Shown here piece by piece: positions 42,831 to 55,677 of a DNA stretch of 64,000 bases. A program made the translations under genes and the position numbers. The stretch is taken from the NCBI GenBank assembly GCA_016839705.1, contig JAEOTR010000016.1, positions 1 to 64,000 of the forward strand, written 5' to 3'. Each line of letters starts with the position of its first letter. Position 1 is the first letter of the stretch. This DNA comes from Promethearchaeota archaeon (GTDB lineage Archaea; Asgardarchaeota; Lokiarchaeia; Sigyniarchaeales; SOKP01). Under the pieces are notes generated by a model. That model was not told where the DNA came from. It did no database searches and saw only the letters and a list, made by a program, of their open reading frames with translations.

Positions 42831-43976
42831 TTAAAATCCAAACATGTTAATTGGTGAGGATCCATTACCTGAGTCTACCGCAGCTTGTACATATGGAGAT
42901 ACGGGTCCATTTGCTAAAACCATAATTTTTACCTTGGAACCCATATCTGGTTTATTTTGAACACCAAATTTTAACTGAGCGCTCTCAGGAATTCCATTTG
43001 TAATAGTAGAGATAACACTATCAACTTTAGATAAAGTTAATGTATGATCACCTGTAACAGATACTATACATCTCTCAACTTTACTAGTATCTGGTTCGAG
43101 TAATGGATTATTTAATGCTAATTTTGCTTTCTCTATTAAATCTGATTCATTTCCCACTGATTCTGCGATGCCAACCAACCCAGAAGGATAATTATCTTTT
43201 TTAACAAAGATTCTTTTCACATCCGCAAAATCTATATTAACCAAACCGCAATTGTTAATTAAGTTAACAACTTCTCCAATATTTCGGATTAAGACTTCGT
43301 CCATAATTTTAAAGCCAGTTATCATGGGAATTTTTCCAACTATGCTCAAAAGATTGTCATTTGGAACGGTTATTAGAAAGTCAGAATATTCTGCTAGATT
43401 TTTAAGACCCTGAGTTGCTTTAACTGCTCTTTGAGCTCCTTCTGATTTAAAGGGAAGTGAACAAAAAGTAACGACTATAGCCTTATTCTTCTTCGCTTCT
43501 TCTGCAATAATTGGTGCTGCACCAGTCCCCGTTCCTCCACCTAGTCCGCAGGTTAAAAAAATAATATCCCCATTAAGAAGTTTACTTAATCTGTCGCGAT
43601 CTTCTTCAGCTGCTTCACCTCCTACTGAAGGATCATTACCCGATCCCATGCCTTGACAACGATCTTTACCGATTAAGACTTTATGTTTTGCATTTGAATA
43701 ATACAAATCGTGAGCATCAGTATTAATATTAACGGTCTCAGCATTACTTATGCCTAATTCCTCCAATCGTGAGACCGTATTATTTCCTGCACCCCCAACT
43801 CCAACTACCAATGATTTAATCTTCAAAACTTTCAGTAAATCTGCTAAATAGCTATCATCATCACAATTTGGATTTGTATTAGGATTTTGGTTCTGGTGAG
43901 CTATTTCATTAAACCTTTCTCTTATAGATGATCGGGATTTTGCTAGTTCGGCTAAATCAAAAATATCATCGCTCAT
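42831..43976 (-). CDS. ftsZ: Cell division protein FtsZ
   Basis: GVGGAGNN, INTDA, GLGGGTGTG, T7 loop NIDFADV. Confidence 0.95.
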   Translation of the reverse strand: MSDDIFDLAELAKSRSSIRERFNEIAHQNQNPNTNPNCDDDSYLADLLKVLKIKSLVVGVGGAGNNTVSRLEELGISNAETVNINTDAHDLYYSNAKHKVLIGKDRCQGMGSGNDPSVGGEAAEEDRDRLSKLLNGDIIFLTCGLGGGTGTGAAPIIAEEAKKNKAIVVTFCSLPFKSEGAQRAVKATQGLKNLAEYSDFLITVPNDNLLSIVGKIPMITGFKIMDEVLIRNIGEVVNLINNCGLVNIDFADVKRIFVKKDNYPSGLVGIAESVGNESDLIEKAKLALNNPLLEPDTSKVERCIVSVTGDHTLTLSKVDSVISTITNGIPESAQLKFGVQNKPDMGSKVKIMVLANGPVSPYVQAAVDSGNGSSPINMFGF

Positions 43977-44271
43977 AAATTTTCATCAATAGAATTTAGT
44001 TTTTTATAATATTCACATATTTTCCAAATAATATAACTAAGTAATATGAAGATAATACTAAAAAATTTGAAGATGGAAATGGGAAAAACGCTTTCACTCC
44101 AGTTGCGCACAATTCCAGTGGGTGGTGATAGTGATCATGATATTCGTAAAACCAATTTTGATTTTATAAAATAAATTTTATATCTATTTTTCCATCTGAA
44201 ATAATCGACAAATTGCCTTAGGAAAGATTTATAAGCCCAAATTTCCATGAATATCAAGTAGGAGTGAAAAA

Positions 44272-44511
44272 ATGGAAATCAACAACACTAAAAATGGCAG
44301 CGGAAAGTCGTTAGATGGCTCAGCGGACGGCGAGTTAATAAAAGTTAGGGCTATCATTTCTTGTCCAAATGGAGATTACAAAAAGAAGTTCACAAATCAA
44401 TTTTTAAGAAAGGAAATAGAAATGATGATTGTCAGCTTTAAGGTTTTCGATTGGCTAACCTGTAATAAATGTGGGGAACTATTAAAGTTAGATCTAGAGT
44501 TTAATATTTAA
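44272..44511 (+). CDS. Small zinc-ribbon-like protein
   Basis: CPNG...CNKC; upstream GGAGTG. Confidence 0.7.
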   Translation: MEINNTKNGSGKSLDGSADGELIKVRAIISCPNGDYKKKFTNQFLRKEIEMMIVSFKVFDWLTCNKCGELLKLDLEFNI

Positions 44512-44590
44512 TATATTAAAAAAATTTATTCGCTCCTTTTATCTATACTTATTTTTGGTTAGGGAATTTACTTTTCTGATTTAGCTTTAA

Positions 44591-45901
44591 TCAGATTTCA
44601 AGATTAATTTGTCCATATGTACCACCGCCACCTGGAATGTATTGAATTTCATTATTTCTAAGGGCATTTATAACGGAGGCAGTTGTAGAATCAAATTTTT
44701 CAATTTTACTCATTGGTATATCAATTAAAATTTCGAATTCTTTTCCAAGCTCTTGAATTATTTCGTTATAAGTATTTAAAACCGTCTTACTAGTAGAACT
44801 TTTTATTCCTTTTACGGATCGGATAATATCTATAAGTGGTATCGCATCAATATATTTTGGTCTATGATCTGGGTGTTTTGGTATATCAGATGTAGAAATT
44901 TTTTCAATTCTTTCACTCACTCCTAATTTAACCTTGAAATTTTGATTTTTTTCTTCCTTACATGCAGGGCAAACCATTTTATTTTTAGCAACCTGATCTA
45001 TATATTGTTTTCTTGCCATATCAGGATCGTCAGAATAGTATATAATAAAATTTTCTGACTTGGAATATTGGCTAAAAATAGAAATCCCCGTTTTTTTAGA
45101 TTTCTTGAACATAACTCTTCTACGACATTTATTACAAAACATATTATAATACTTACCAAGTTTAGGATTTAAACCAACATTTAATATTATTTTTCTGTTA
45201 TCTTTTCTCATTAGAGCTAATAAGAGTTCCTCAAAGGAGGGATTATCAAGATCTAGCTTATTGAATTCACGCCCTAAAGAGCGTGGATCTTGCGAATGCG
45301 CATCGCTGTTACTTAAAAAAGTCACATTTTTTAAGCTTCCCAATCTATCCGCTAGATCAGTATTAGCTGAAAGTCCTAATTCCAAAAAGTACACCTTGTT
45401 TGTTGCGTCTTGATAACATTCCTTAATTGTTTCAAATTTCCCCTGACGAAAGATTGCTTTAAAGGGAGTGAAAGCATGTGCAGGACCAACTATGCCACCT
45501 AAATCTGAAATTATATCAACTAAGGCAGGAGGTGAGAGATTAACTCGAGGTCTTCCTCCCCATTCATCTAATATATTTTTTGAATATGATTTTAATTTGG
45601 TTTGAATTTCTTTAACAGAAGCAAAATCAGGGAATAATATAACATGATGTATGCTCTCCATATCTTCTATTTCAGTCTGAAGGATAAAAAAAACATCTTT
45701 ATACGAAAAAGATCCATCTTTTTCCTTTTTTAACCTACGTTCCATGTATTTAAACCATTCTGGTTGTAAAATATCACCGGTACCAAGGATATTTAGACCC
45801 TTCTTTTTACAAGTCTCCAACATCGTATCTAAATTTAATGATTTTGATACTGCGATTGAATGAGGACTATGGATGTGGAGATCAGCGTTAAAAATATCCA
45901 T
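44591..45901 (-). CDS. Endonuclease Q family (PHP domain) protein
   Basis: DLHIHS, GTGD, PAHAFTP, ELGLSA, NSDAHS, LGRE, GKY, PGGGGTYG. Confidence 0.92.
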   Translation of the reverse strand: MDIFNADLHIHSPHSIAVSKSLNLDTMLETCKKKGLNILGTGDILQPEWFKYMERRLKKEKDGSFSYKDVFFILQTEIEDMESIHHVILFPDFASVKEIQTKLKSYSKNILDEWGGRPRVNLSPPALVDIISDLGGIVGPAHAFTPFKAIFRQGKFETIKECYQDATNKVYFLELGLSANTDLADRLGSLKNVTFLSNSDAHSQDPRSLGREFNKLDLDNPSFEELLLALMRKDNRKIILNVGLNPKLGKYYNMFCNKCRRRVMFKKSKKTGISIFSQYSKSENFIIYYSDDPDMARKQYIDQVAKNKMVCPACKEEKNQNFKVKLGVSERIEKISTSDIPKHPDHRPKYIDAIPLIDIIRSVKGIKSSTSKTVLNTYNEIIQELGKEFEILIDIPMSKIEKFDSTTASVINALRNNEIQYIPGGGGTYGQINLEI

Positions 45902-45960
45902 CAGTTATTAAAAACCTTACTTCAATAAAAAGATTTTAATAATGCGTTAATTATTTCTGT

Positions 45961-47010
45961 TCAATTTACGATGAGCATTTTGTCTTTTGTTTGATCAGTC
46001 AATAAAATTCGATAATATTCTAATTCATTCTTGAAAAAAACTTTTTCTAATTTTCCTTCTACTAGGACGGTTTCTCCTTCCTGAGCATGCTCACAAAAAC
46101 GCGCTCGAAAAGAATTTATTTCTAAAATTTCTTTAAGGCTGACTTTTTTCAAGATTGACTCTTTATCTAGGATTTTTAGAGCATTAATTTTATAAGAGCA
46201 AGGAGTAAATATTGAATCCTTAGAGTCAGTTATTAAAACTTTAGCTTTAATTCTTCCATAATTTTTATATTGATAATCATAAAATGTTCCGTTCCAATCA
46301 TTAGGGCTCTTAATGTACCTTATAAAAAAATTGATGTTATGGAATTTACCTTGATGCAGCTTTCTTTGTTCACTTCTCATAAACTCTTTAAACGATATGT
46401 CTGATCCTCCAACCCTCCAGACATAATGAGATTTATAGTCTTCTAGATTATACATTCTAAATTGATTAGATTCGGTGAAAATGTCTTTTAACGTTCCTTG
46501 AAATATATGGGATGTTTCTGTGCCATATACAATTATATCAATATCTGAAACTTCTTTATTTAAACCGACCATAACTGAGCCAGTAATTCCTATTGAATCT
46601 CTGGAAATATTTCCTTTATATATAAACAATTCACATAAATTTTTGGAACACTTTTCAATGGTAGAAAGATTTTCCTTTTCAAATAATTCTATCAAACAAC
46701 CCCGGGGTGTGTAAACTTTTTTAATATCATTATTAAAAACACTTTGTATTTCCATATCAAGCTCCTTTGAATAAAAGAGATAATTAGGATAGAATCTTCT
46801 TAATAATGAATAGCGCTCATCTAAATTGTAAACTTTTTTATACATAACGCCATTTTTTATTCGATCTCCCTCGGGATGTGGATAAAACCTTAAAAAACAG
46901 ATTTTTCTATCAATTGGGTGGAGTAACCCTTTAACATCAAATATTAAATTAGTTTTTTTAGTTTCAATATAATCTCCTTCAATTCCTTTGGTGTATTCCA
47001 TGAATATCAC
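45961..47010 (-). CDS. Archaeal nucleotidyltransferase-domain protein (COG1665-like)
   Basis: GITGS...SDIDIIVYG; C-terminal OB-like GETVLVEGKLE. Confidence 0.8.
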   Translation of the reverse strand: MIFMEYTKGIEGDYIETKKTNLIFDVKGLLHPIDRKICFLRFYPHPEGDRIKNGVMYKKVYNLDERYSLLRRFYPNYLFYSKELDMEIQSVFNNDIKKVYTPRGCLIELFEKENLSTIEKCSKNLCELFIYKGNISRDSIGITGSVMVGLNKEVSDIDIIVYGTETSHIFQGTLKDIFTESNQFRMYNLEDYKSHYVWRVGGSDISFKEFMRSEQRKLHQGKFHNINFFIRYIKSPNDWNGTFYDYQYKNYGRIKAKVLITDSKDSIFTPCSYKINALKILDKESILKKVSLKEILEINSFRARFCEHAQEGETVLVEGKLEKVFFKNELEYYRILLTDQTKDKMLIVN

Positions 47011-47029: not shown

Positions 47030-48166
47030 TTAATATTTTGAAGGAGTTTTAGATTTTATTTTTTGTTTTGGGATGCCCTTTAACTTTCTTAACTCTTTTT
47101 CAAAATTTCTTTTTTCATTAAGAAATCTCTGTTTGTCTTTCTCTAATTTTTCCCTTTCCCGTTTTATTGTACTTTTATCGTTAGATAAGTCTAATTTCTC
47201 TCTTTCTAAACGTCTGAGGTCAATATTTAACCTTTTGAATTTTTCTTCTAATGGGGGTATTTTTTCAGATATGGAGTAGAATTTATTTTCAGATTTAGGA
47301 ATCTTACTTTCTAATTCTTTCATTCTTACCTCTTGTTGTCTTTTTCTGCTTTCAAGACTTTTTACATCATTTTCCACTTTATTCCTATATTTTCTTAGAT
47401 CTTCCTTTTTCTTATCAATCTCTCGGCCTTTCAGGTTTAGTTCATCTTTTTGATAACGTAATTTCTCTCGATTTTCTTTTAGCTTACTTTTTTCATCAGA
47501 AATCCTGTTTTTTTCATCAACTAACTCCCTCTTTAAGTTATTCACTTCTCGATTGAGGGTATCTCTTTCTTTAGTTAAATATTTAATTTCATTTCTTAAA
47601 TCTTCTAATTTATGCTCTAGATCTTCGTTAGTCTTCTCAAGCGCACTCTTTCTTCTTTCCATCCCAGGTATCTTCGTTTTTATATCCTTAAATTGGTTTT
47701 CAATCCTCTGTTTTTCTTGGTCTATTGAATCTTTTTCATTTCCTAACTCATCTCTAAGCTTATCTAACCTTTTCTGAAATCCCTCTAATTGAGCTTTCCT
47801 TTGATTTAATCTATCGTTTTCTTCTCTTTTTTTATCTTTAAATTGTTGTTCTCTTGCATCTAACTCAATTTTTTGTTTTTCTAAGTCATTTTTTGTTTTT
47901 TTAAGACTGTTCTGAATGATATCCCTTTTTTCACGAAGATTTTTTAGTTCAATTTCTTCCGTTTTCCGCTTTTTTTCAAGATCTTCTATATTTTCTCTGT
48001 AATTCTCAATTTGGGTAATGAAATTTTCCCATTCACCCTTTTCTTTATTAAGTTTTATTCTTTCCTTCTTAATCTTTTTTAACAAATTTTTATCAGCAAT
48101 CATGTCACCCTCGTCGTCGGGAGTTTTTTCTCGAATTTGATGTTTGGGAATAGGTTTATCATTCAT
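47030..48166 (-). CDS. Long K/E/R-rich coiled-coil protein
   Basis: About 330 aa of heptad-like charged helix; no ATPase head. Confidence 0.8.
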   Translation of the reverse strand: MNDKPIPKHQIREKTPDDEGDMIADKNLLKKIKKERIKLNKEKGEWENFITQIENYRENIEDLEKKRKTEEIELKNLREKRDIIQNSLKKTKNDLEKQKIELDAREQQFKDKKREENDRLNQRKAQLEGFQKRLDKLRDELGNEKDSIDQEKQRIENQFKDIKTKIPGMERRKSALEKTNEDLEHKLEDLRNEIKYLTKERDTLNREVNNLKRELVDEKNRISDEKSKLKENREKLRYQKDELNLKGREIDKKKEDLRKYRNKVENDVKSLESRKRQQEVRMKELESKIPKSENKFYSISEKIPPLEEKFKRLNIDLRRLEREKLDLSNDKSTIKREREKLEKDKQRFLNEKRNFEKELRKLKGIPKQKIKSKTPSKY

Positions 48167-48376: not shown

Positions 48377-48769
48377 ATGGGATTTGACAATGAATATGAG
48401 GAGGGTTTAGAATTTGATGAAGATTTGGAAGAAGATTTAGATGATAAGTTGGATGAAATCCCCTCAGAAATTCCTAGCAAAGATATTAATTCTAAAACCC
48501 CCATCCCAAGGGCTACTTCTGAAGGAAAAAAAATTTCTGTTTACTTTATTTCAACCATCGGACCCGAGAAAAAGCAAAAATTGCTTATTAATAGTGGAAA
48601 TCTTGTTGGAGATATTAAGCAGACAGTAGCAAACTTATTCGCTTTAGATCCAGCTGACTTCTATTTGTCAGCACTAGGGATCACCATGGATGAACAAAAT
48701 CCTTTGAAAGAATATGAAGTAGATGATGGAGACGACATACTTTTAATCCCGGCTAGTATTGCAGGATAA
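48377..48769 (+). CDS. Ubiquitin-like protein ending ...IPASIAG, with acidic N-terminal extension
   Basis: beta-grasp pattern VGDIKQ...FYLSALGITMDEQNPLKEYEVDDGDDILLIP; C-terminal Gly. Confidence 0.85.
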   Translation: MGFDNEYEEGLEFDEDLEEDLDDKLDEIPSEIPSKDINSKTPIPRATSEGKKISVYFISTIGPEKKQKLLINSGNLVGDIKQTVANLFALDPADFYLSALGITMDEQNPLKEYEVDDGDDILLIPASIAG

Positions 48770-48787: not shown

Positions 48788-49582
48788 TTAATTATTCCTT
48801 TTTCTCGATGGAATCAGAGCAATTTCATCATCATCATCAATATCATAGTTTTGGATTTGCTTATCTTCAGATAGTAAAATTCCCCCTGAAGATAGAAGAA
48901 ATCCCTCCAATTCATAATTAAATAGTACTCCCACTCTTTTTTTAACTGTACTAATTAATTCAGTTGTATCAACAATGATCAACTTAGTAATCTCGCCTGG
49001 TTCAACTAGGGATCTAATGTACACACGGATCTGATCCTTGAGATTAATTTTATTTTTAGGTGGTATATAAAATATTTCCTCATCAGTTTGATCTCGATTC
49101 TTAAGCATATTATCGATTAATGCTTTTCGTTCATCCACATCAAAATAGAGCATTTCTCTAATAAAAAGGATTTTGTCAAGCTTTGATAATCCAAGGTTGT
49201 TTATTTTTCCTAATTCTTCCTTACTAAAAACTGAAAAAATATATTTGCTGATTATTGGAGAATCCTCATAAGATTCATTTGAATCAAGATATTCTTCAAT
49301 TGAAGGCAAAACCTCAAGATATTCATCGATAACATTCTCATCTATCCTATTGAAAGACTTAGTTTTCGGTGAAATTTTCTTATCTCTTATTTTATCATGT
49401 TGATGACCTGTCGATTGGATAACGGTATAGATTGTGCTAGTAGAGAGAACTGCAACACTCCCAATTGTTAGAATAAGAAATAATGGGGTGTTGTTTACCC
49501 CAAACAGGAAATAACTTACGTAAATCAACACAAAAATAGTATAAAGGGTTATAACGCTTAATGTTCTATATTTTTTCTTCAT
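48788..49582 (-). CDS. Membrane-anchored protein with C-terminal ubiquitin-like domain
   Basis: Two N-terminal TM helices; C-terminal YIRSLVEPG...FLLSSGGILLSEDKQIQNYDIDDDDEIALIP is paralogous to the flanking Ubls. Confidence 0.8.
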   Translation of the reverse strand: MKKKYRTLSVITLYTIFVLIYVSYFLFGVNNTPLFLILTIGSVAVLSTSTIYTVIQSTGHQHDKIRDKKISPKTKSFNRIDENVIDEYLEVLPSIEEYLDSNESYEDSPIISKYIFSVFSKEELGKINNLGLSKLDKILFIREMLYFDVDERKALIDNMLKNRDQTDEEIFYIPPKNKINLKDQIRVYIRSLVEPGEITKLIIVDTTELISTVKKRVGVLFNYELEGFLLSSGGILLSEDKQIQNYDIDDDDEIALIPSRKRNN

Positions 49583-49667
49583 AATTTTTTAATAAATTTG
49601 TTGGTCTAATTTTCAAATAAATAACTTAAAATATAAATTCCATTGGAATAAAATTGGAGTTTTTTTT

Positions 49668-50339
49668 TCAATCACCTTGAATTAACTTCCTAACCTTATT
49701 ATACTTCTTAATATCTAATTTGAATAATATTCGATTTTTATCTTTCTCAGTTTCTAATAATTTTAGATTTTCTAGAATATTGACATATTTTTTTATAGTG
49801 TTGTGATTTTTTTTCATACCATTTGCTATTTCAGTGATTTTAAATGGCTTATCTTCATTGGTTAGGAATTCTATTAATTTTAGAACAATATCTTTATTCA
49901 AATAATAATAAAACTTATCCAACTTTGGATTTGAATCATATTCAAAGAAAATCCGATGGTTATTGAGTTTTTCTGACCTGACAAATTTAAATTTTTCTAG
50001 ACAAGAAAGGTGCCATAGTGCTTGATTACTTCCGATCTTAAGAGTTTTCATTATTTCATTAATATTAGACGGATTTTTTTTTATGTAATTATAAATCTCA
50101 TTCCTTTTTGGATGTTCAATGATATTATTCTTCATTAACCGAGTTCCAGGGATGATTATTTTCTTTTTTATCAATGATTTTATTATTAACTCAATTTTAT
50201 TTCGGTTTAAATTAGGATTTAACCTTACCCTGTTACTTATAAATTCTATTATATCAGTGATCGAAAAGAATGTTTTTTTTGTTAGATATTCTTTTACTAA
50301 GCCAAGAACAATAGATTCTAAATTATCCAAGGAACTCAT
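49668..50339 (-). CDS. Multi-winged-HTH transcription regulator
   Basis: RNEIYNYIKKNP...WHLSCLEK; ITEIA...HNTIKKYV. Confidence 0.8.
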   Translation of the reverse strand: MSSLDNLESIVLGLVKEYLTKKTFFSITDIIEFISNRVRLNPNLNRNKIELIIKSLIKKKIIIPGTRLMKNNIIEHPKRNEIYNYIKKNPSNINEIMKTLKIGSNQALWHLSCLEKFKFVRSEKLNNHRIFFEYDSNPKLDKFYYYLNKDIVLKLIEFLTNEDKPFKITEIANGMKKNHNTIKKYVNILENLKLLETEKDKNRILFKLDIKKYNKVRKLIQGD

Positions 50340-50602
50340 AAGCCACTTTTAGTTTTTCGTTTCAATATCTTGTTAATACAGTGTAATACTCTCTCTATAA
50401 CAATAGTAAATATATAATATATATTAATAGGCATTCATACAATTTATAATATCATTTCTTTCACCCCCTATCGTATTTTTTTGCAACTATAAAGCTATTG
50501 ATCGCATTTCCTGCTTTACTTTTGCTTTATGAAAAAAGTTTAAATATATATTCAGTAATGTAGTAAAATAATCAATATTTAATCTGTAAAAAGTAATGAA
50601 TT

Positions 50603-51120
50603 ATGGCGAATGGGAAAGGTTTAACCTATTTAGGATTGATTTTAAGATTAATCGGTGCGGGTTTGGGCGGATATGTATTTTTTGATTATATTTAGCTCCA
50701 CTATTAGGATTTGGAGACCCTCCTGCAGAAGGTTCTGAAATAAATTCATACTACGTAGAAACCTACCAAGCAACCCTCACCCTACCTGATACATATGAAT
50801 CCCTTGATGGAATGATAATTTCATTTAATACAACCAAAACAGTTAACTTACACGTATTATATACTGGTTATGTAAGGATTATGACAACCCTTGGATTATA
50901 TGCTCAAATAAAAATCCTTCTTAATAGTACCATATTAACAACTAATCAATATTATGTAGAGGAGATTGGTTTTGTCGTTCAAGAACGATTTGCTGTTAAC
51001 ATGTAAAATTATATCTCTGCGCTACCTCCAGGAAATTATAATGTAACAGTATTAGGGATGTCCGATGATACTTCAACAAGTTTTTTTCAGAACTCACTCT
51101 ATATACAAATTCATACTTAA
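50603..51120 (+). pseudogene. Disrupted exported/membrane-anchored beta-rich protein
   Basis: Signal-anchor MANGKGLTYLG...GGYVFFDYI, frameshift near 50690, in-frame TAA at 51004-51006, then continues NYISALPPGNYNVTV...IHT*. Confidence 0.75.
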
Positions 51121-51346
51121 ATAATTAATTAATTCAAATTCCTCATTTTTTTTACCTCTATTAATAGTTCTTTATACTTTCCTGAAGATTTATTATCTTC
51201 TTTCTCATATGGGATCATGATACTTTTTTTTTAAATGAAAGAAAAACTACAATTTTATGCCAATTGATTTTATAATACCATTTTAACTCAATTTTATTAG
51301 GTTTTTAATAAAAAAATAAAAAAATAAAAAATTGGAAGTGATGTGT

Positions 51347-51688
51347 ATGAGTTTTGAAGATGAGTTTGATGAGGATTTAGGTGGGGAGAGACCTGTAAAT
51401 TCTAAGACCCCTTCATCTAAAACCCCTTCAGCAGGAAGAAAATTGACATTGTATTTTATGTCAACCATAGGCCCTGGCGAGAAGAAAGAAAAATTAACAG
51501 TGAATGACGGAAATTGCGTTGAGGATATAAAGCAGACATTAGGAAATTTATATGGACTTGATCCTAATGATTTTCATTTATCTTCTGGCGGAGTTACGAT
51601 GGATGAAAATAGCTCATTAAAGGATTACCATGTGAGCGATGGAGACGACATTCTTATGATTCCCGCGAGCACTGCCGGGAAAGCTTAA
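51347..51688 (+). CDS. Ubiquitin-like modifier precursor ending ...IPASTAG-KA
   Basis: beta-grasp VEDIKQ...FHLSSGGVTMDENSSLKDYHVSDGDDILMIP; directly upstream of E1; ATG at 51347 preferred by comparison with the paralogue. Confidence 0.88.
   Translation: MSFEDEFDEDLGGERPVNSKTPSSKTPSAGRKLTLYFMSTIGPGEKKEKLTVNDGNCVEDIKQTLGNLYGLDPNDFHLSSGGVTMDENSSLKDYHVSDGDDILMIPASTAGKA
51401..51430 (+). repeat. 15-bp tandem repeat encoding SKTPS-SKTPS
   Basis: TCTAAGACCCCTTCA / TCTAAAACCCCTTCA. Confidence 0.85.
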
Positions 51689-51761: not shown

Positions 51762-52997
51762 ATGGTAATACTTATGGATAAGAATTCAGAATTTTTCGGA
51801 AAAGAGTTATCAGTGGAAGAGAGAAGTTTGTATGACCGTCAATTTCGTCTCGAGGGATGGTCTCAGAAATTGGTAAAAAATTCGAGGATATTAATTGCAG
51901 GCGTCGGTGGTTTAGGGTGTGAAATTGCTAAAAATCTATCGATGCTTGGTATCGGTCACTTAGATCTCGTTGATTTGGATATTATTGAACATTCTAATTT
52001 AAACCGTCAAATTCTTTTTGCGGGGGCAAAGATCGGAGAACCTAAAGCGGTTGTTGCAGCAAGAAAACTTAAGGACATTAATCCTAATATAGCAGTTAAA
52101 GGTTATCACACCTCTTTAGAGCGATTAAATCCCGCAATCTATCAAGCCGCTGATGTAATAATTGGAGGTCTTGATTCGATGAATACCCGTCTAAACTTGA
52201 ATGCTCAATGTATTAGGTTTAAAATCCCTCTTGTCGATGGAGGTGTATCTGGATATCACGGTCATGTATACACAATCTTTCCTTATCAAAATGCCTGTTA
52301 TGAGTGCAATCCCTTACCCGTCGTAGAGGGTGATGACATGGCGGCTTGTACAGTAGTAGGAATTCCTCGAAAAAGAATCCATTGTGTCTTTAAAGGAGAC
52401 ATGGCATTTAAAGAAAAACTTGATAGAGGTCCCAATCCTAAAAATGTAAATGATATCAAATTCATTCAAAAGGTTGCAAATGAATTAGTAAATAAACATA
52501 ATTTCTTACCTGAATATACGGTAGATGATATTGTAAGAATAATTGATAGACATGATCCGGGAATAATTACGATTAATGCGGTTATTTCCGCCTTACAATC
52601 CCATGAAGCCGTGAAAATTCTCCATTGGAAAAAGGGTCATAAAGGGCTTGGAGAACCAATTCAAAATTATGTGGTCTATAATGGAATAACTATGAAATTT
52701 TATCATATTGAAAAAAAAAGAAATCCAGAATGTTCTCAGTGTGGAAAGCACGTTAGAAGAGTATCAATAAAATTGAACCCTCATTCACCATGCGAGAACA
52801 TAATCAAAATATTAACTAAAAATGGGTTTAAACCTGATCCAGATTCAGAACCAATTCTTACTTTACAAGATTTTAATGATATTAAGATGGTTGATTTAGA
52901 ACAGAATCCAATTGAAAATGGTTTAAGAAATTATGAATTTATAACCGCAGCAGGCTTCAAAGATGGGGAAATTTTTGTAACCTTAAAATTGAAATAA
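51762..52997 (+). CDS. Ubiquitin-like activating enzyme E1 (UBA2/UBA3-like)
   Basis: YDRQ, GVGGLGCE, DLDIIEHSNLNRQ, CYEC and CSQC zinc pairs, catalytic-Cys segment CTVVGIPRKRIHC. Confidence 0.93.
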   Translation: MVILMDKNSEFFGKELSVEERSLYDRQFRLEGWSQKLVKNSRILIAGVGGLGCEIAKNLSMLGIGHLDLVDLDIIEHSNLNRQILFAGAKIGEPKAVVAARKLKDINPNIAVKGYHTSLERLNPAIYQAADVIIGGLDSMNTRLNLNAQCIRFKIPLVDGGVSGYHGHVYTIFPYQNACYECNPLPVVEGDDMAACTVVGIPRKRIHCVFKGDMAFKEKLDRGPNPKNVNDIKFIQKVANELVNKHNFLPEYTVDDIVRIIDRHDPGIITINAVISALQSHEAVKILHWKKGHKGLGEPIQNYVVYNGITMKFYHIEKKRNPECSQCGKHVRRVSIKLNPHSPCENIIKILTKNGFKPDPDSEPILTLQDFNDIKMVDLEQNPIENGLRNYEFITAAGFKDGEIFVTLKLK

Positions 52998-53078
52998 TAA
53001 TTTAACCAAAAAAACCAAATAATTAAAAAAAATAGAGAATAAAAATTATAAATAAAAATAATAAAAAGGTTTGATAAG

Positions 53079-53606
53079 ATGAGTATAAGAAGTAGTCGTA
53101 TTTCCCAAGATTTTGCAGGATTAAAAAAACTGTTAAAGACGGGTACTATAATTCAATTAAAACCATTTAATCCTAAAAAGAAGAGTATAGATCATTTAGC
53201 TATAACTATTAAAGGGCCAAAAGGCACTGTATATGCGGGAGGTGTGTTTAAATTAGAAATGAAATTCCCTTCCCAGTATCCTAGCCAACCCCCTTTCGTT
53301 AGAATGCATACTCCAATTTGGCATCCAAATTTTTGGCCAAAACCGACTGAATATAAGGGACAAAGAAATATATGTCTAGCTTTGGTAGATCCCTCTTTGG
53401 CGGGTAAAAAGGGTGGATGGAGTCCATCAAAAACAGCAGTGACAATTGTTCAAGCAATAATTGCAATGCTAAACACCCGTGGTAAATTTGTTAACCCAAC
53501 TGATGTTTTTAATAAAAAGGCAGCAATTGAAATGATGAAAAATCCTAAATTTTTCGAGAAAAAGGTTAAAAACTTAGTTAAAAAATATGCAAATACGAAA
53601 TGGTGA
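53079..53606 (+). CDS. Ubiquitin-conjugating enzyme E2
   Basis: GPKGTVYAGGVF, FPSQYPSQPP, HPN, active-site ICL, WSP. Confidence 0.95.
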   Translation: MSIRSSRISQDFAGLKKLLKTGTIIQLKPFNPKKKSIDHLAITIKGPKGTVYAGGVFKLEMKFPSQYPSQPPFVRMHTPIWHPNFWPKPTEYKGQRNICLALVDPSLAGKKGGWSPSKTAVTIVQAIIAMLNTRGKFVNPTDVFNKKAAIEMMKNPKFFEKKVKNLVKKYANTKW

Positions 53607-54442
53607 TTTCGCTAATGGAAGAAAAAGAATCAGCTAACAGTTCAATTAAAGACGTAATAAAGCAGAAAATAAAAGAAAAAATAAAAAAGGAATTATTAGA
53701 TGAAATACGTGAAGAGCTTCAATTAGAAGAAGAAGAATTAACTGAAGAAATTATTTCAATGCTTACACAAAGAGTTTCTAACGGTCTAAATATAAAACAT
53801 TCGAAGGCGCCCATCGTTAATATTTTAGAAAAAAAAGTCATAGAACCTCAATTAGAGCAAGAAGCCCAAAAGGAAACCTACATTACAATAAAGGCAACTC
53901 TTAAAATAGCAAGTCACGCTATAAAATATGCTAATCCTAATATACCTAAATCAAACTGGATTGAAGTTATAGGTATTCTCGCTGGAAAAATAGATAAAAA
54001 GACTGGTTTACTAATAATTGAAGATGCATATCCTGTTGGACATGGCAATGCAATCCATGCAAAAATGGATGATAAGAGAAATCGTAGAACGGGTTTTATA
54101 AAAGCTTTTGAAATAATCAAGAAAAATAAATTAGATATTTGTGGGTGGTATCATTCTCATCCTTGCTATGGATGTTTTATGTCACCCGAAGATTTTGATA
54201 CTCAAGCGAGATATCAGAAATTATGGGATAAAGCCGTTGCACTTGTTATCGATCCGTGCCTTATTGATGGAACTTCAACAGGTTTTGAGATTTATCAGGC
54301 AGATTTGAAATCAAAAACTTTCTATCCTCTATTATATGGAATTAAAGGATCGTTAGATATCCGTATGCTACCCGACATTTTAGAATTTATGAATCCAATT
54401 ATTCAAGGGAAAGCGGCTTATTTAGAATATGATAAAGATTAA
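53600..54442 (+). CDS. JAMM/MPN+ isopeptidase (Rpn11/CSN5-like)
   Basis: EVIG, GWYHSHPCYGCFMSPEDFDTQ, ALVIDP. Confidence 0.93.
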   Translation: MVISLMEEKESANSSIKDVIKQKIKEKIKKELLDEIREELQLEEEELTEEIISMLTQRVSNGLNIKHSKAPIVNILEKKVIEPQLEQEAQKETYITIKATLKIASHAIKYANPNIPKSNWIEVIGILAGKIDKKTGLLIIEDAYPVGHGNAIHAKMDDKRNRRTGFIKAFEIIKKNKLDICGWYHSHPCYGCFMSPEDFDTQARYQKLWDKAVALVIDPCLIDGTSTGFEIYQADLKSKTFYPLLYGIKGSLDIRMLPDILEFMNPIIQGKAAYLEYDKD

Positions 54443-54471
54443 ATTATATTATTGATGGTGGTTATTAAACC

Positions 54472-55677
54472 GTGGCTAAAACTAAGGTAATAATTTTACT
54501 GCTGATTGCATTTGCAATTATCGGCATAATACACGGTGCCATTCTAAATTCAGTTAATGTATTTGTAAGTTGGTTTTTAATAGGGATATGGTTAGTATTT
54601 ACATTTAAAGTTATAAAGAATATAAAGCAACATCGTGAATATCGTAGTCCACACAATACAGCATTTTTTACTATTGGTCCTGTTTTGATTGGAATTTTTT
54701 ATTCAATTTGGGGAAATTTTACAGGATTATTAGGAGAAAATCTCTTAATAAGCACAGATTTATATTTAAGTTGGTGGAGTATACTATTTGGGTTTCCATA
54801 TGTGTTTTATAGTTCAATCTCATTATACCGTTGTTTTAAAAAATACCGAGTAATTTATTTTGGGACAAAATCTGTAAATGCCCGTAAATTTGGCTATTTA
54901 TTAGGCATATCGGTTATATTTTTCATATCTATCTATTGGATTAGTTTCTATTCATTGATCGATTTTTATGAATCTCTTATAATACCACTTCATTTTTTAC
55001 TAGATCTTAATCTTCTAATACTGCTTGTGAGCACTATTCTAATAATAATTATTGCAGGATTATTTGGGTCACAGACTCAATTACCCCAATTAACAAGAGA
55101 TTATATAGCACAGCGTAGGAATAGATTAAACCAACTAACATCACCTAGAAGAAATAGTACACCTAATAGATATAGGGAAAGTGTTCGCAATACCACAAGG
55201 TCAAATCCAACACCTTCAGCTAGCACGGTAACCCGTACATCAAGATCAGTGAACCATTCATCCCGATCTACACCAACCGCACGAAGACGTTCTACAACTA
55301 CAAGAACTAAAACAAGTTCTCGAACTGTGAGTAGAGGGCCAACAGGGACACAGGTAAGAAAGAAACAGAGTACTAAAAAAATAACTAACTTTAATATATA
55401 TAAACCTAAAGCCGCGCGTTTATCATCTGAGGACTTTAAGTGTATTTTTTGCTTTAAATTACCAAAAATTCCTGAGGATAACGGTAGAGGTATAATTTTA
55501 TGTCCAAATTGTAGATACCCTGCTCATGCAGATGAATTTAAGGATTGGTTACAAAGTTCCAACCTCTGTTCTCGATGCAGTGCTCCTATTCCTACAACCT
55601 ATAAGAGAAATCCAAGAATAATACCGATTAAAACTTATTTAGTAATTGTAAAACATTTTATTGGCAATAAGAGATAA
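54472..55677 (+). CDS. Multi-pass membrane protein with C-terminal RING-like domain (putative E3 ligase)
   Basis: About 6 TM, R/S/T-rich linker, CIFC-x16-CPNC-x4-H-x2-E-x3-W-x6-CSRC. Confidence 0.8.
   Translation: MAKTKVIILLLIAFAIIGIIHGAILNSVNVFVSWFLIGIWLVFTFKVIKNIKQHREYRSPHNTAFFTIGPVLIGIFYSIWGNFTGLLGENLLISTDLYLSWWSILFGFPYVFYSSISLYRCFKKYRVIYFGTKSVNARKFGYLLGISVIFFISIYWISFYSLIDFYESLIIPLHFLLDLNLLILLVSTILIIIIAGLFGSQTQLPQLTRDYIAQRRNRLNQLTSPRRNSTPNRYRESVRNTTRSNPTPSASTVTRTSRSVNHSSRSTPTARRRSTTTRTKTSSRTVSRGPTGTQVRKKQSTKKITNFNIYKPKAARLSSEDFKCIFCFKLPKIPEDNGRGIILCPNCRYPAHADEFKDWLQSSNLCSRCSAPIPTTYKRNPRIIPIKTYLVIVKHFIGNKR

Follow-up and report, generated by a model that had tools for sequence, protein, structure and literature searches.

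A membrane-tethered, non-conjugatable ubiquitin-like protein and its candidate regulator-docking module in a Lokiarchaeial conjugation locus

TM-Ubl is a 264-amino-acid (aa) protein encoded on the minus strand at positions 48788..49582 of the stretch of DNA analysed here (the window; 64,000 nucleotides (nt) of contig JAEOTR010000016.1 from a Promethearchaeota archaeon), next to the genes of a ubiquitin-like conjugation system. Its open reading frame (ORF) comprises a hairpin of two transmembrane (TM) helices, a basic linker, a five-helix module that we designate MID, and a ubiquitin-like (Ubl) domain without a terminal glycine. A first-pass annotation of the window had called it a non-conjugatable, membrane-tethered Ubl paralogue, and this is correct, because the C-terminal domain has a beta-grasp fold and the distribution of the protein is tied to the Ubl operon. 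Our analysis further shows that MID occurs in the tails of other membrane proteins, nearly always adjacent to or fused with paralogues of the triple winged helix-turn-helix (wHTH) regulator that is encoded upstream of TM-Ubl, and that a 21-nt direct-repeat motif is present upstream of just two transcription units, TM-Ubl itself and the conjugation operon, and absent from relatives that lack this cassette. We put at roughly one in two the probability that TM-Ubl is a membrane anchor, or anti-regulator, that holds the wHTH factor through MID, with the non-conjugatable Ubl domain acting as a decoy or sensor. Neither a membrane-tethered Ubl family nor MID nor the 21-nt motif is described in the literature that we searched in full text.

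The TM-Ubl ORF is conserved far beyond chance, as 392 homologues, all of them from Lokiarchaeia/Promethearchaeota metagenomes, are nearly all 261–269 aa long, mostly exactly 264 aa, and 60–87% identical. Conservation extends along the whole length, with a mean column identity of 74% in a 33-sequence alignment. Full-length TM-Ubl was modelled with AlphaFold2 from 33 aligned sequences, giving a moderate model with a mean predicted local distance difference test (pLDDT) score of 64 and a predicted template-modelling score of 0.37. Two TM helices at the N terminus, as read in the first-pass annotation, are seen both in a Kyte–Doolittle profile, which has hydrophobic stretches at residues ~9–27 and 34–56, and in the model, which has helices at residues 2–26 and 32–56. 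We assign TM helix 1 to residues 9–27 (49502..49558, minus strand), preceded by MKKKYR, and TM helix 2 to residues 34–56 (49415..49483, minus strand), followed by a K/R-rich segment that includes DKIRDKK. The loop between the helices is neutral and six residues long. Because the flanks are K/R-rich and the loop is neutral, the positive-inside rule predicts that both ends of the protein are cytoplasmic (N-in/C-in). The basic linker that follows (residues 57–82; 49337..49414, minus strand) is probably disordered, with pLDDT scores of 29–39, and contains two invariant lysines, K68 and K75.

The C-terminal domain (residues 184–258; 48809..49033, minus strand) is a ubiquitin-like beta-grasp domain. 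Its kinship with the two free Ubls of the locus (hereafter, Ubl A and Ubl B), first proposed from shared motifs, is supported by BLASTP matches of the C-terminal 76 residues (184–259) at E = 1e-13 and 8e-12 and by 15 invariant positions common to TM-Ubl and the free Ubls. The Pfam ubiquitin family PF00240 matches TM-Ubl at E = 2.6e-5 with 24.3 bits, just below the cut-off of 25.4 bits, and precomputed PF00240 matches are present in many orthologues. AlphaFold2 places a β-β-α-β-β unit at residues 184–258, with pLDDT scores of 77–89 over residues 200–259. Foldseek comparison of this unit with the PDB places ISG15, Caldiarchaeum ubiquitin (6fno/6fnn among the matches) and ubiquitin on top, with E values of ~1e-6, template-modelling scores to the target of 0.8–0.9 and root-mean-square deviations of 1–2 Å. 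The shared invariant positions cluster in the β1–β2 loop (PGE), the SSGG segment and the last strand (Y..D.D.I.LIP), which by our own mapping would correspond to the Leu8/Ile44/Val70 face of ubiquitin. The lysine K214, in the helix of the domain, is invariant in TM-Ubl, and the aligned lysine is invariant in the free Ubls.

The protein ends in a basic tail, SRKRNN (48791..48808, minus strand), and the absence of a terminal glycine noted in the first pass extends beyond this one species. Among 75 orthologues, one per species, with a complete C terminus, the tail consists of IPSRK and 0–10 further, mostly basic residues, and no terminal glycine is conserved: it occurs in 2 of the 75, at +6 after the conserved proline, whereas the glycine of the free Ubls is at +5. 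The free Ubls of the same loci end in A-[STIV]-[TIV]-A-G. TM-Ubl therefore has no C-terminal glycine, exposed or exposable, of the kind that defines a conjugatable modifier; with a ubiquitin fold inside a larger protein and no use as a modifier, it is a type-2 UBL-domain protein. On its sequence, the Ubl domain is predicted not to be activatable by the usual chemistry, lacking the glycine that activation needs.

The helical middle of TM-Ubl, likewise noted in the first pass, is MID (residues 83–165; 49088..49336, minus strand). The full-length model places five helices between residues 83 and 161 (83–100, 109–118, 121–128, 134–144 and 149–161), and MID folded alone gives a confident five-helix model with a mean pLDDT of 80. 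An exhaustive phmmer search showed that residues ~80–165 recur at the extreme C terminus of unrelated Lokiarchaeial membrane proteins, in which a WD40, beta-helix/NosD or laminin-G ectodomain precedes a single TM helix and MID, often with a Cys-rich zinc finger between these two; some of the proteins have MID twice. Residues 83–165 of TM-Ubl match the MID profile at E = 5e-34. The view of this region as a spacer is thus not borne out: MID is a mobile module, and the proteins that carry it have wHTH paralogues encoded next to them or fused to them. The module has no known fold or family among PDB and Pfam entries, which does not by itself prove a novel fold. Foldseek against the PDB gave no match below E = 4.8, the best Z score from VIA-align over 48,161 chains was 4.9, well inside helical noise, the profile searched against PDB sequences gave non-significant matches only (YeGT, 0.05; Vta1 VSL, 0.3), and a Pfam scan of the copy in the window returned nothing.

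Searching with the profile for longer MID carriers returned mostly TM-Ubl orthologues, and little was gained. The genome to which the window belongs has a single clear MID copy and a single copy of the wHTH family. A further, weak MID match, on contig C1 of this genome, was rejected as spurious, the protein being TldD/PmbA-like. Contig C82 (L085 1345–2922, minus strand) encodes a 525-aa polytopic protein with an N-terminal Zn-ribbon and two MID-like repeats in its C-terminal tail, which may be a divergent member of the class (profile E = 0.02). In many of the MID-tailed membrane proteins (P0164, P0165, P0169, P0170, P0175 and P0177), a conserved eight-ligand zinc finger lies between the TM helix and MID. 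Its pattern, CxxH-x11-CxxC-x4-CxxC-x10-CxxC, has a spacing like that of cross-brace PHD/RING fingers, and in Pfam it finds only weak B-box, DZR and RING matches.

As the first-pass annotation had noted, TM-Ubl is downstream of a co-oriented wHTH gene (49668..50339, minus strand), at a distance of 85 nt. The encoded triple wHTH regulator is ArsR/HrcA/TrmB-like, with Pfam matches to HrcA_DNA-bdg, HTH_5 and FaeA above the cut-offs, and falls in the atlas clusters HTH_24/HTH_5, together with ArsR/HTH_24 regulators. Its orthologue tracks TM-Ubl across genomes, and in a family-wide scan the copy numbers of wHTH paralogues and of MID vary in parallel from genome to genome. A full count over five genomes found a MID match within 6 kb on the same strand for 37 of 44 wHTH-family genes, and a wHTH neighbour for 43 of 54 MID matches. 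MID is upstream of the wHTH gene in 27 of the 37 pairs, 23 of these ending only 41–85 nt before it, and downstream in the other 10. In one locus (L096), a wHTH paralogue is directly upstream of a MID-tailed membrane protein, and in another (L095) it heads the same operon. Four loci (L099–L102) encode single-frame fusions of ectodomain, TM helix, MID and wHTH, which indicate a physical or functional link between MID and the wHTH domains.

With a cytoplasmic MID and a wHTH neighbour so close upstream, TM-Ubl belongs to the class of paired MID-tail and triple-wHTH proteins that we propose. The closest paralogue of its wHTH partner lies beside hairpin-plus-MID proteins that have no Ubl domain (L106); TM-Ubl therefore looks like a hairpin-plus-MID anchor that gained a Ubl. 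The idea that the wHTH gene is mere context is not borne out, as its paralogues are adjacent to or fused with MID carriers, and the evidence suggests that MID and the wHTH gene together make up the functional core.

The 85-nt gap between the wHTH gene and TM-Ubl is conserved in length and sequence, and its 5′ part holds AAACTNCAANNTNATNCCAAT, a direct repeat TTCNAA/TCCAAT with the two halves about one helical turn apart. In the window, this 21-nt candidate operator is AAACTCCAATTTTATTCCAAT (49642..49662, minus strand); it starts 6 nt past the wHTH stop codon and ends 59 nt before the TM-Ubl ATG. It was found in 65 of 69 orthologous gaps, with a cross-species median distance to the ATG of 58 nt and an AT-rich, TATA-like stretch after the motif. 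A second copy, AAACTACAATTTTATGCCAAT (51244..51264, plus strand), lies ~67 nt before the start codon of the operon that encodes Ubl B, E1, E2, JAMM and a RING-like protein, in the same orientation as the operon and present in 63 of 63 orthologous intergenic regions. No block upstream of Ubl B is more conserved than the motif, whose orientation relative to the gene is the same as at TM-Ubl. Across 1.25 Mb of syntenic loci, at least 117 of 120 matches with up to one mismatch fall at these two upstream sites. The window holds two exact matches, against 0.25 expected, and the same two sites are the only exact matches in the 3.36-Mb genome. By these counts, TM-Ubl has its own promoter-proximal copy of an otherwise operon-specific element.

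The best imperfect match in the genome has one mismatch and lies on another contig, directly before a third Ubl gene (C43:25259–25520; L003 1477–1737). This gene encodes 78 aa, ends in ASTAG and has no acidic N-terminal extension; the motif abuts its start codon, leaving no room for a TATA box, and the locus may have arisen as a truncated copy of Ubl B together with its promoter. Cassette-less relatives (L107–L109 and L093) have no match within two mismatches, and their matches at three mismatches are all outside the promoter region between the Ubl gene and the gene for a 378-aa coiled-coil protein (CC378). In genus g5, the second motif copy is found shortly before E2, in the interval that separates it from E1 (L091 7260–8425; L092 2802–3126), which suggests that E2, JAMM and the RING-like protein are a separately controlled unit there; the copy in L091 sits within a gap of ~1.1 kb. 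No k-mer of 9 nt or longer is shared between the Ubl B/wHTH and Ubl A/CC378 intergenic regions. All that they share is the 7-mer TTTAGAG, which occurs at about −58 before CC378 (47 of 66 species) and before the wHTH gene (26 of 63 species), and we do not claim it as an operator as it overlaps a purine-rich, BRE-like stretch.

The genes around TM-Ubl form a conjugation locus with an almost invariant order in 79 species-representative genomes. TM-Ubl converges, as the first pass had it, on the gene for Ubl A (48377..48769, plus strand; 130 aa, ending in ASIAG), with a gap of 18 nt. Ubl B (51332..51688, plus strand; ending in ASTAG-KA) is the first gene of the conjugation operon, both free Ubls being assigned by ORF, Pfam and BLASTP. 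It is followed by E1 (ThiF), E2 (UQ_con), JAMM (JAB) and a polytopic membrane protein that carries a RING-like zinc finger at its C terminus (together 51762..55677, plus strand), assigned by Pfam and hydropathy; the RING-like label rests on the Cys/His pattern and weak Pfam matches (zf-RING_16, E = 0.04). The conserved order runs, on the first strand, from an amidohydrolase and GTP cyclohydrolase through the membrane RING-like protein, JAMM, E2 and E1 to Ubl B, continues with the wHTH gene and TM-Ubl on the other strand, and then with Ubl A, the coiled-coil protein, a nucleotidyltransferase, a PHP protein and FtsZ.

A survey of 400 genomes from the phylum found full-length TM-Ubl in only four genera, all belonging to one Lokiarchaeial family, with about 49 of 53, 35 of 42, 3 of 6 and 4 of 10 genomes positive in the respective genera; most of the genomes without it in these genera are incomplete assemblies or have the locus at a contig end. 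The membrane RING-like gene of the operon is far wider, being present in 129 of 154 genomes of the order. Relatives without TM-Ubl (L107–L109) have a single Ubl–E1–E2–JAMM–RING-like operon divergent from the coiled-coil gene, and the wHTH gene, TM-Ubl and the second Ubl are therefore a derived insertion. In evolutionary terms, the motif came in with the wHTH gene and TM-Ubl when these were inserted into a pre-existing Ubl operon. Genus g11 has the cassette at another site, with a soluble RING-like paralogue and a Ubl divergent from the wHTH gene and TM-Ubl, and E1, E2 and JAMM remain at the ancestral locus. The co-occurrence across genomes is as expected if TM-Ubl belongs with the Ubl operon, and we saw no distribution independent of it; wherever TM-Ubl was found, a Ubl and the wHTH orthologue accompanied it, except in one rearranged genome (L094), in which the wHTH gene is truncated.

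In the anchor model that we favour, MID would bind the wHTH protein and hold it at the membrane, as the fusions in L099–L102 suggest, and the wHTH protein would bind the 21-nt motif. Activation is suggested because the motif lies upstream of the TATA-like region. The tethered Ubl would be recognized by one or more partners of the free Ubl or its conjugates, such as E2, JAMM, the RING-like protein or a downstream unfoldase, a possibility raised by its retention of the conserved face (the PGE loop, SSGG and Y..D.D.I.LIP). Release or retention of the regulator would then depend on the state of the Ubl system, which would place the conjugation genes, and TM-Ubl itself, under feedback control. The fuller version of this model is one that we offer tentatively: the tethered Ubl would be a 'pseudo-conjugate' that, together with MID, holds the transcription factor, and Ubl machinery (the RING-like protein, JAMM or an unfoldase) would read the Ubl and release or retain the factor. 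Several observations weigh against the anchor model. All four verified MID–wHTH fusions come from one genome (G153), and the adjacency of regulator and membrane genes could be explained by plain cis-regulation, so that only the fusions argue for physical coupling. The full-length AlphaFold2 model is uninformative on interdomain contacts, the motif of genus g11 is recognizable only in degenerate form, and the wHTH gene's own promoter is without the 21-nt motif.

An adaptor or decoy role for the Ubl domain, as proposed in the first-pass annotation, is plausible and on our data incomplete. Taken as the whole explanation it becomes doubtful: TM-Ubl would be purely a membrane adaptor whose Ubl docks E2, E1, JAMM, the RING-like protein or a proteasome/Cdc48-type unfoldase non-covalently, in the manner of HERP/Usa1 with Hrd1 or of MUBs with E2s, with MID as a scaffold or oligomerization domain and the wHTH gene merely regulating transcription. 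The ubiquitin fold with the family's conserved surface, the near-invariant synteny with E1, E2, JAMM and the polytopic RING-like protein, and the cassette of genus g11, which travels with a Ubl and a RING-like paralogue while E1, E2 and JAMM are elsewhere, all fit such a role. It would leave unexplained, however, why MID carriers that have no Ubl are also paired or fused with wHTH paralogues and why the motif upstream of the operon is repeated before TM-Ubl. Most of the order, moreover, has a Ubl operon that functions in the absence of TM-Ubl: the RING-like gene is found in 129 of 154 genomes, TM-Ubl in only four genera.

The invariant K214, with its invariant counterpart in the free Ubls, and the membrane RING-like protein encoded in the same locus would also suit an anchored acceptor or built-in degron. 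Here TM-Ubl would be no donor but would be modified on its Ubl domain, at the acceptor lysine common to the free Ubls, thereby controlling its own turnover or seeding chains at the membrane, much as ubiquitin-fusion-degradation substrates are modified. We consider this unlikely: no chain formation is known for these Ubls, and the conserved lysine may be purely structural. It is in any case compatible with the regulator-anchor model rather than an alternative to it. A non-transcriptional role for the wHTH–MID pair is very improbable. The triple WH would be an ESCRT-II-like adaptor that sorts the tails of membrane proteins, and TM-Ubl a mimic of the sorting signal; ESCRT-II does use tandem WH domains as protein adaptors, MID is found on the tails of many surface proteins, and the MID profile weakly matches the VSL region of Vta1 (E = 0.3). 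That match is not significant, however, and the wHTH protein matches DNA-binding Pfam families above cut-offs and no ESCRT-II families, with a conserved DNA motif accompanying the cassette.

The anchor model has a bacterial precedent in SdpI of Bacillus subtilis, a membrane protein that sequesters the ArsR-family regulator SdpR encoded directly upstream (PMC2910880). Both loci have a regulator gene followed by a membrane-protein gene on one strand, both regulators are ArsR-like wHTH proteins, and the proposed logic is alike, in that membrane sequestration sets expression of the pair's own locus. SdpI differs in being polytopic, in binding SdpR through its loops and in responding to an external toxin, whereas TM-Ubl has a hairpin and a soluble MID and its input would be the cytoplasmic Ubl domain. 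The position of the motif suggests activation here rather than repression. The analogy is one of logic and gene order only, and Pfam reports just ubiquitin and a weak DUF2614 match on TM-Ubl.

Among eukaryotic proteins, HERP and yeast Usa1 are UBL-domain, two-TM hairpin partners of the polytopic RING ligase Hrd1. The likeness to HERP and TMUB drawn in the first-pass annotation stands as to architecture (a hairpin in the membrane with cytosolic termini, an unconjugated UBL and a polytopic RING-type membrane protein alongside) and fails as to descent. The domain order is reversed, the UBL being N-terminal in HERP and C-terminal in TM-Ubl; there is no homology outside the ubiquitin fold and no counterpart of MID or of the wHTH link. 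Nothing places TM-Ubl in the HERP family, as Pfam found ubiquitin and the weak DUF2614 match only and a representative search returned Asgard-type relatives only. The MUB proteins of plants and animals are membrane-anchored ubiquitin-fold proteins that bind E2 non-covalently. They resemble TM-Ubl in having an unconjugated ubiquitin fold at the membrane and differ in using a C-terminal prenylation (CAAX) anchor instead of N-terminal TM helices; TM-Ubl ends in RKRNN and has no cysteine near its C terminus. Yeast Spt23 and Mga2 and mammalian NFE2L1 exemplify ubiquitin-dependent release of membrane-tethered transcription factors. The proposed TM-Ubl system would share with them a transcription factor at the membrane whose release is coupled to ubiquitin machinery. 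There, however, the factor itself is membrane-bound, ubiquitylated and processed, whereas here factor and anchor are usually two proteins, and the anchor, instead of being tagged, has a Ubl of its own. These eukaryotic parallels, membrane-tethered factors as well as HERP/Usa1–Hrd1, are on present comparison analogies, not homologies. The Ub–E1–E2–RING–Rpn11 operons of Caldiarchaeum subterraneum and Asgard archaea are conjugation operons of the same kind, with the closest Ubl fold (6fno/6fnn), but no membrane-tethered, Gly-less Ubl paralogue and no MID/wHTH cassette is described for them.

The locus lends itself to experiment as a compact circuit, with a non-conjugatable membrane Ubl, a candidate docking domain, a DNA-binding partner and, before the conjugation operon, a precisely defined 21-nt candidate operator. 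Beyond the locus, a larger class of Lokiarchaeial surface receptors comes into view, with MID tails and paired or fused with wHTH regulators; this class would constitute a lineage-specific transmembrane signalling system. Should the tentative pseudo-conjugate reading be true, TM-Ubl would be an Asgard counterpart both of ubiquitin-dependent factor release and of the UBL-hairpin partners of membrane RING ligases, and its switch would sit within this wider, undescribed family of transmembrane receptors that signal through MID and wHTH. If the RING-like protein or JAMM does read the Ubl, non-covalent membrane UBL signalling would have evolved independently in an Asgard lineage. The cassette cannot date such signalling to before eukaryotes because it is a derived insertion confined to four genera.

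Several further features of these loci are of interest. The soluble RING-like paralogue of genus g11 (L087–L090; for example, L088 5137–5805, minus strand) is a 222-aa protein with a Ser/Thr/Arg-rich repeat region, the same zinc finger and no TM helices, and it travels with the Ubl/wHTH/TM-Ubl cassette. In the window, the divergent wHTH/Ubl B intergenic region (50340–51346) is ~1,000 nt long, against 235–267 nt in 63 other species, with ~750 nt apparently inserted between the conserved promoter blocks on the wHTH and Ubl B sides; the gap is also enlarged in the two closest relatives (L045 and L073). Across the whole order, CC378 (47030–48166, minus strand) and a Ubl gene form a divergent pair, even where TM-Ubl is absent (L107–L109 and L093). 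Beyond CC378, a block encoding FtsZ, a 79-aa Cys-containing ORF, a PHP-like 436-aa protein and a 349-aa nucleotidyltransferase-like protein (42831–47010) keeps a fixed syntenic position relative to the Ubl locus in almost every species examined.

Other Lokiarchaeial Ubls of the family (P0132, P0138, P0144, P0146 and P0150) are fused downstream of other modules, namely a Roadblock/LC7-like sequence (recognized by eye), a Zn-ribbon with a coiled coil, or three tandem Ubls; for P0138, Pfam reports ubiquitin alone. All keep the S-T-A-G end or a short extension of it, and by their sequences they would be conjugatable, cargo-bearing modifiers or polyproteins.

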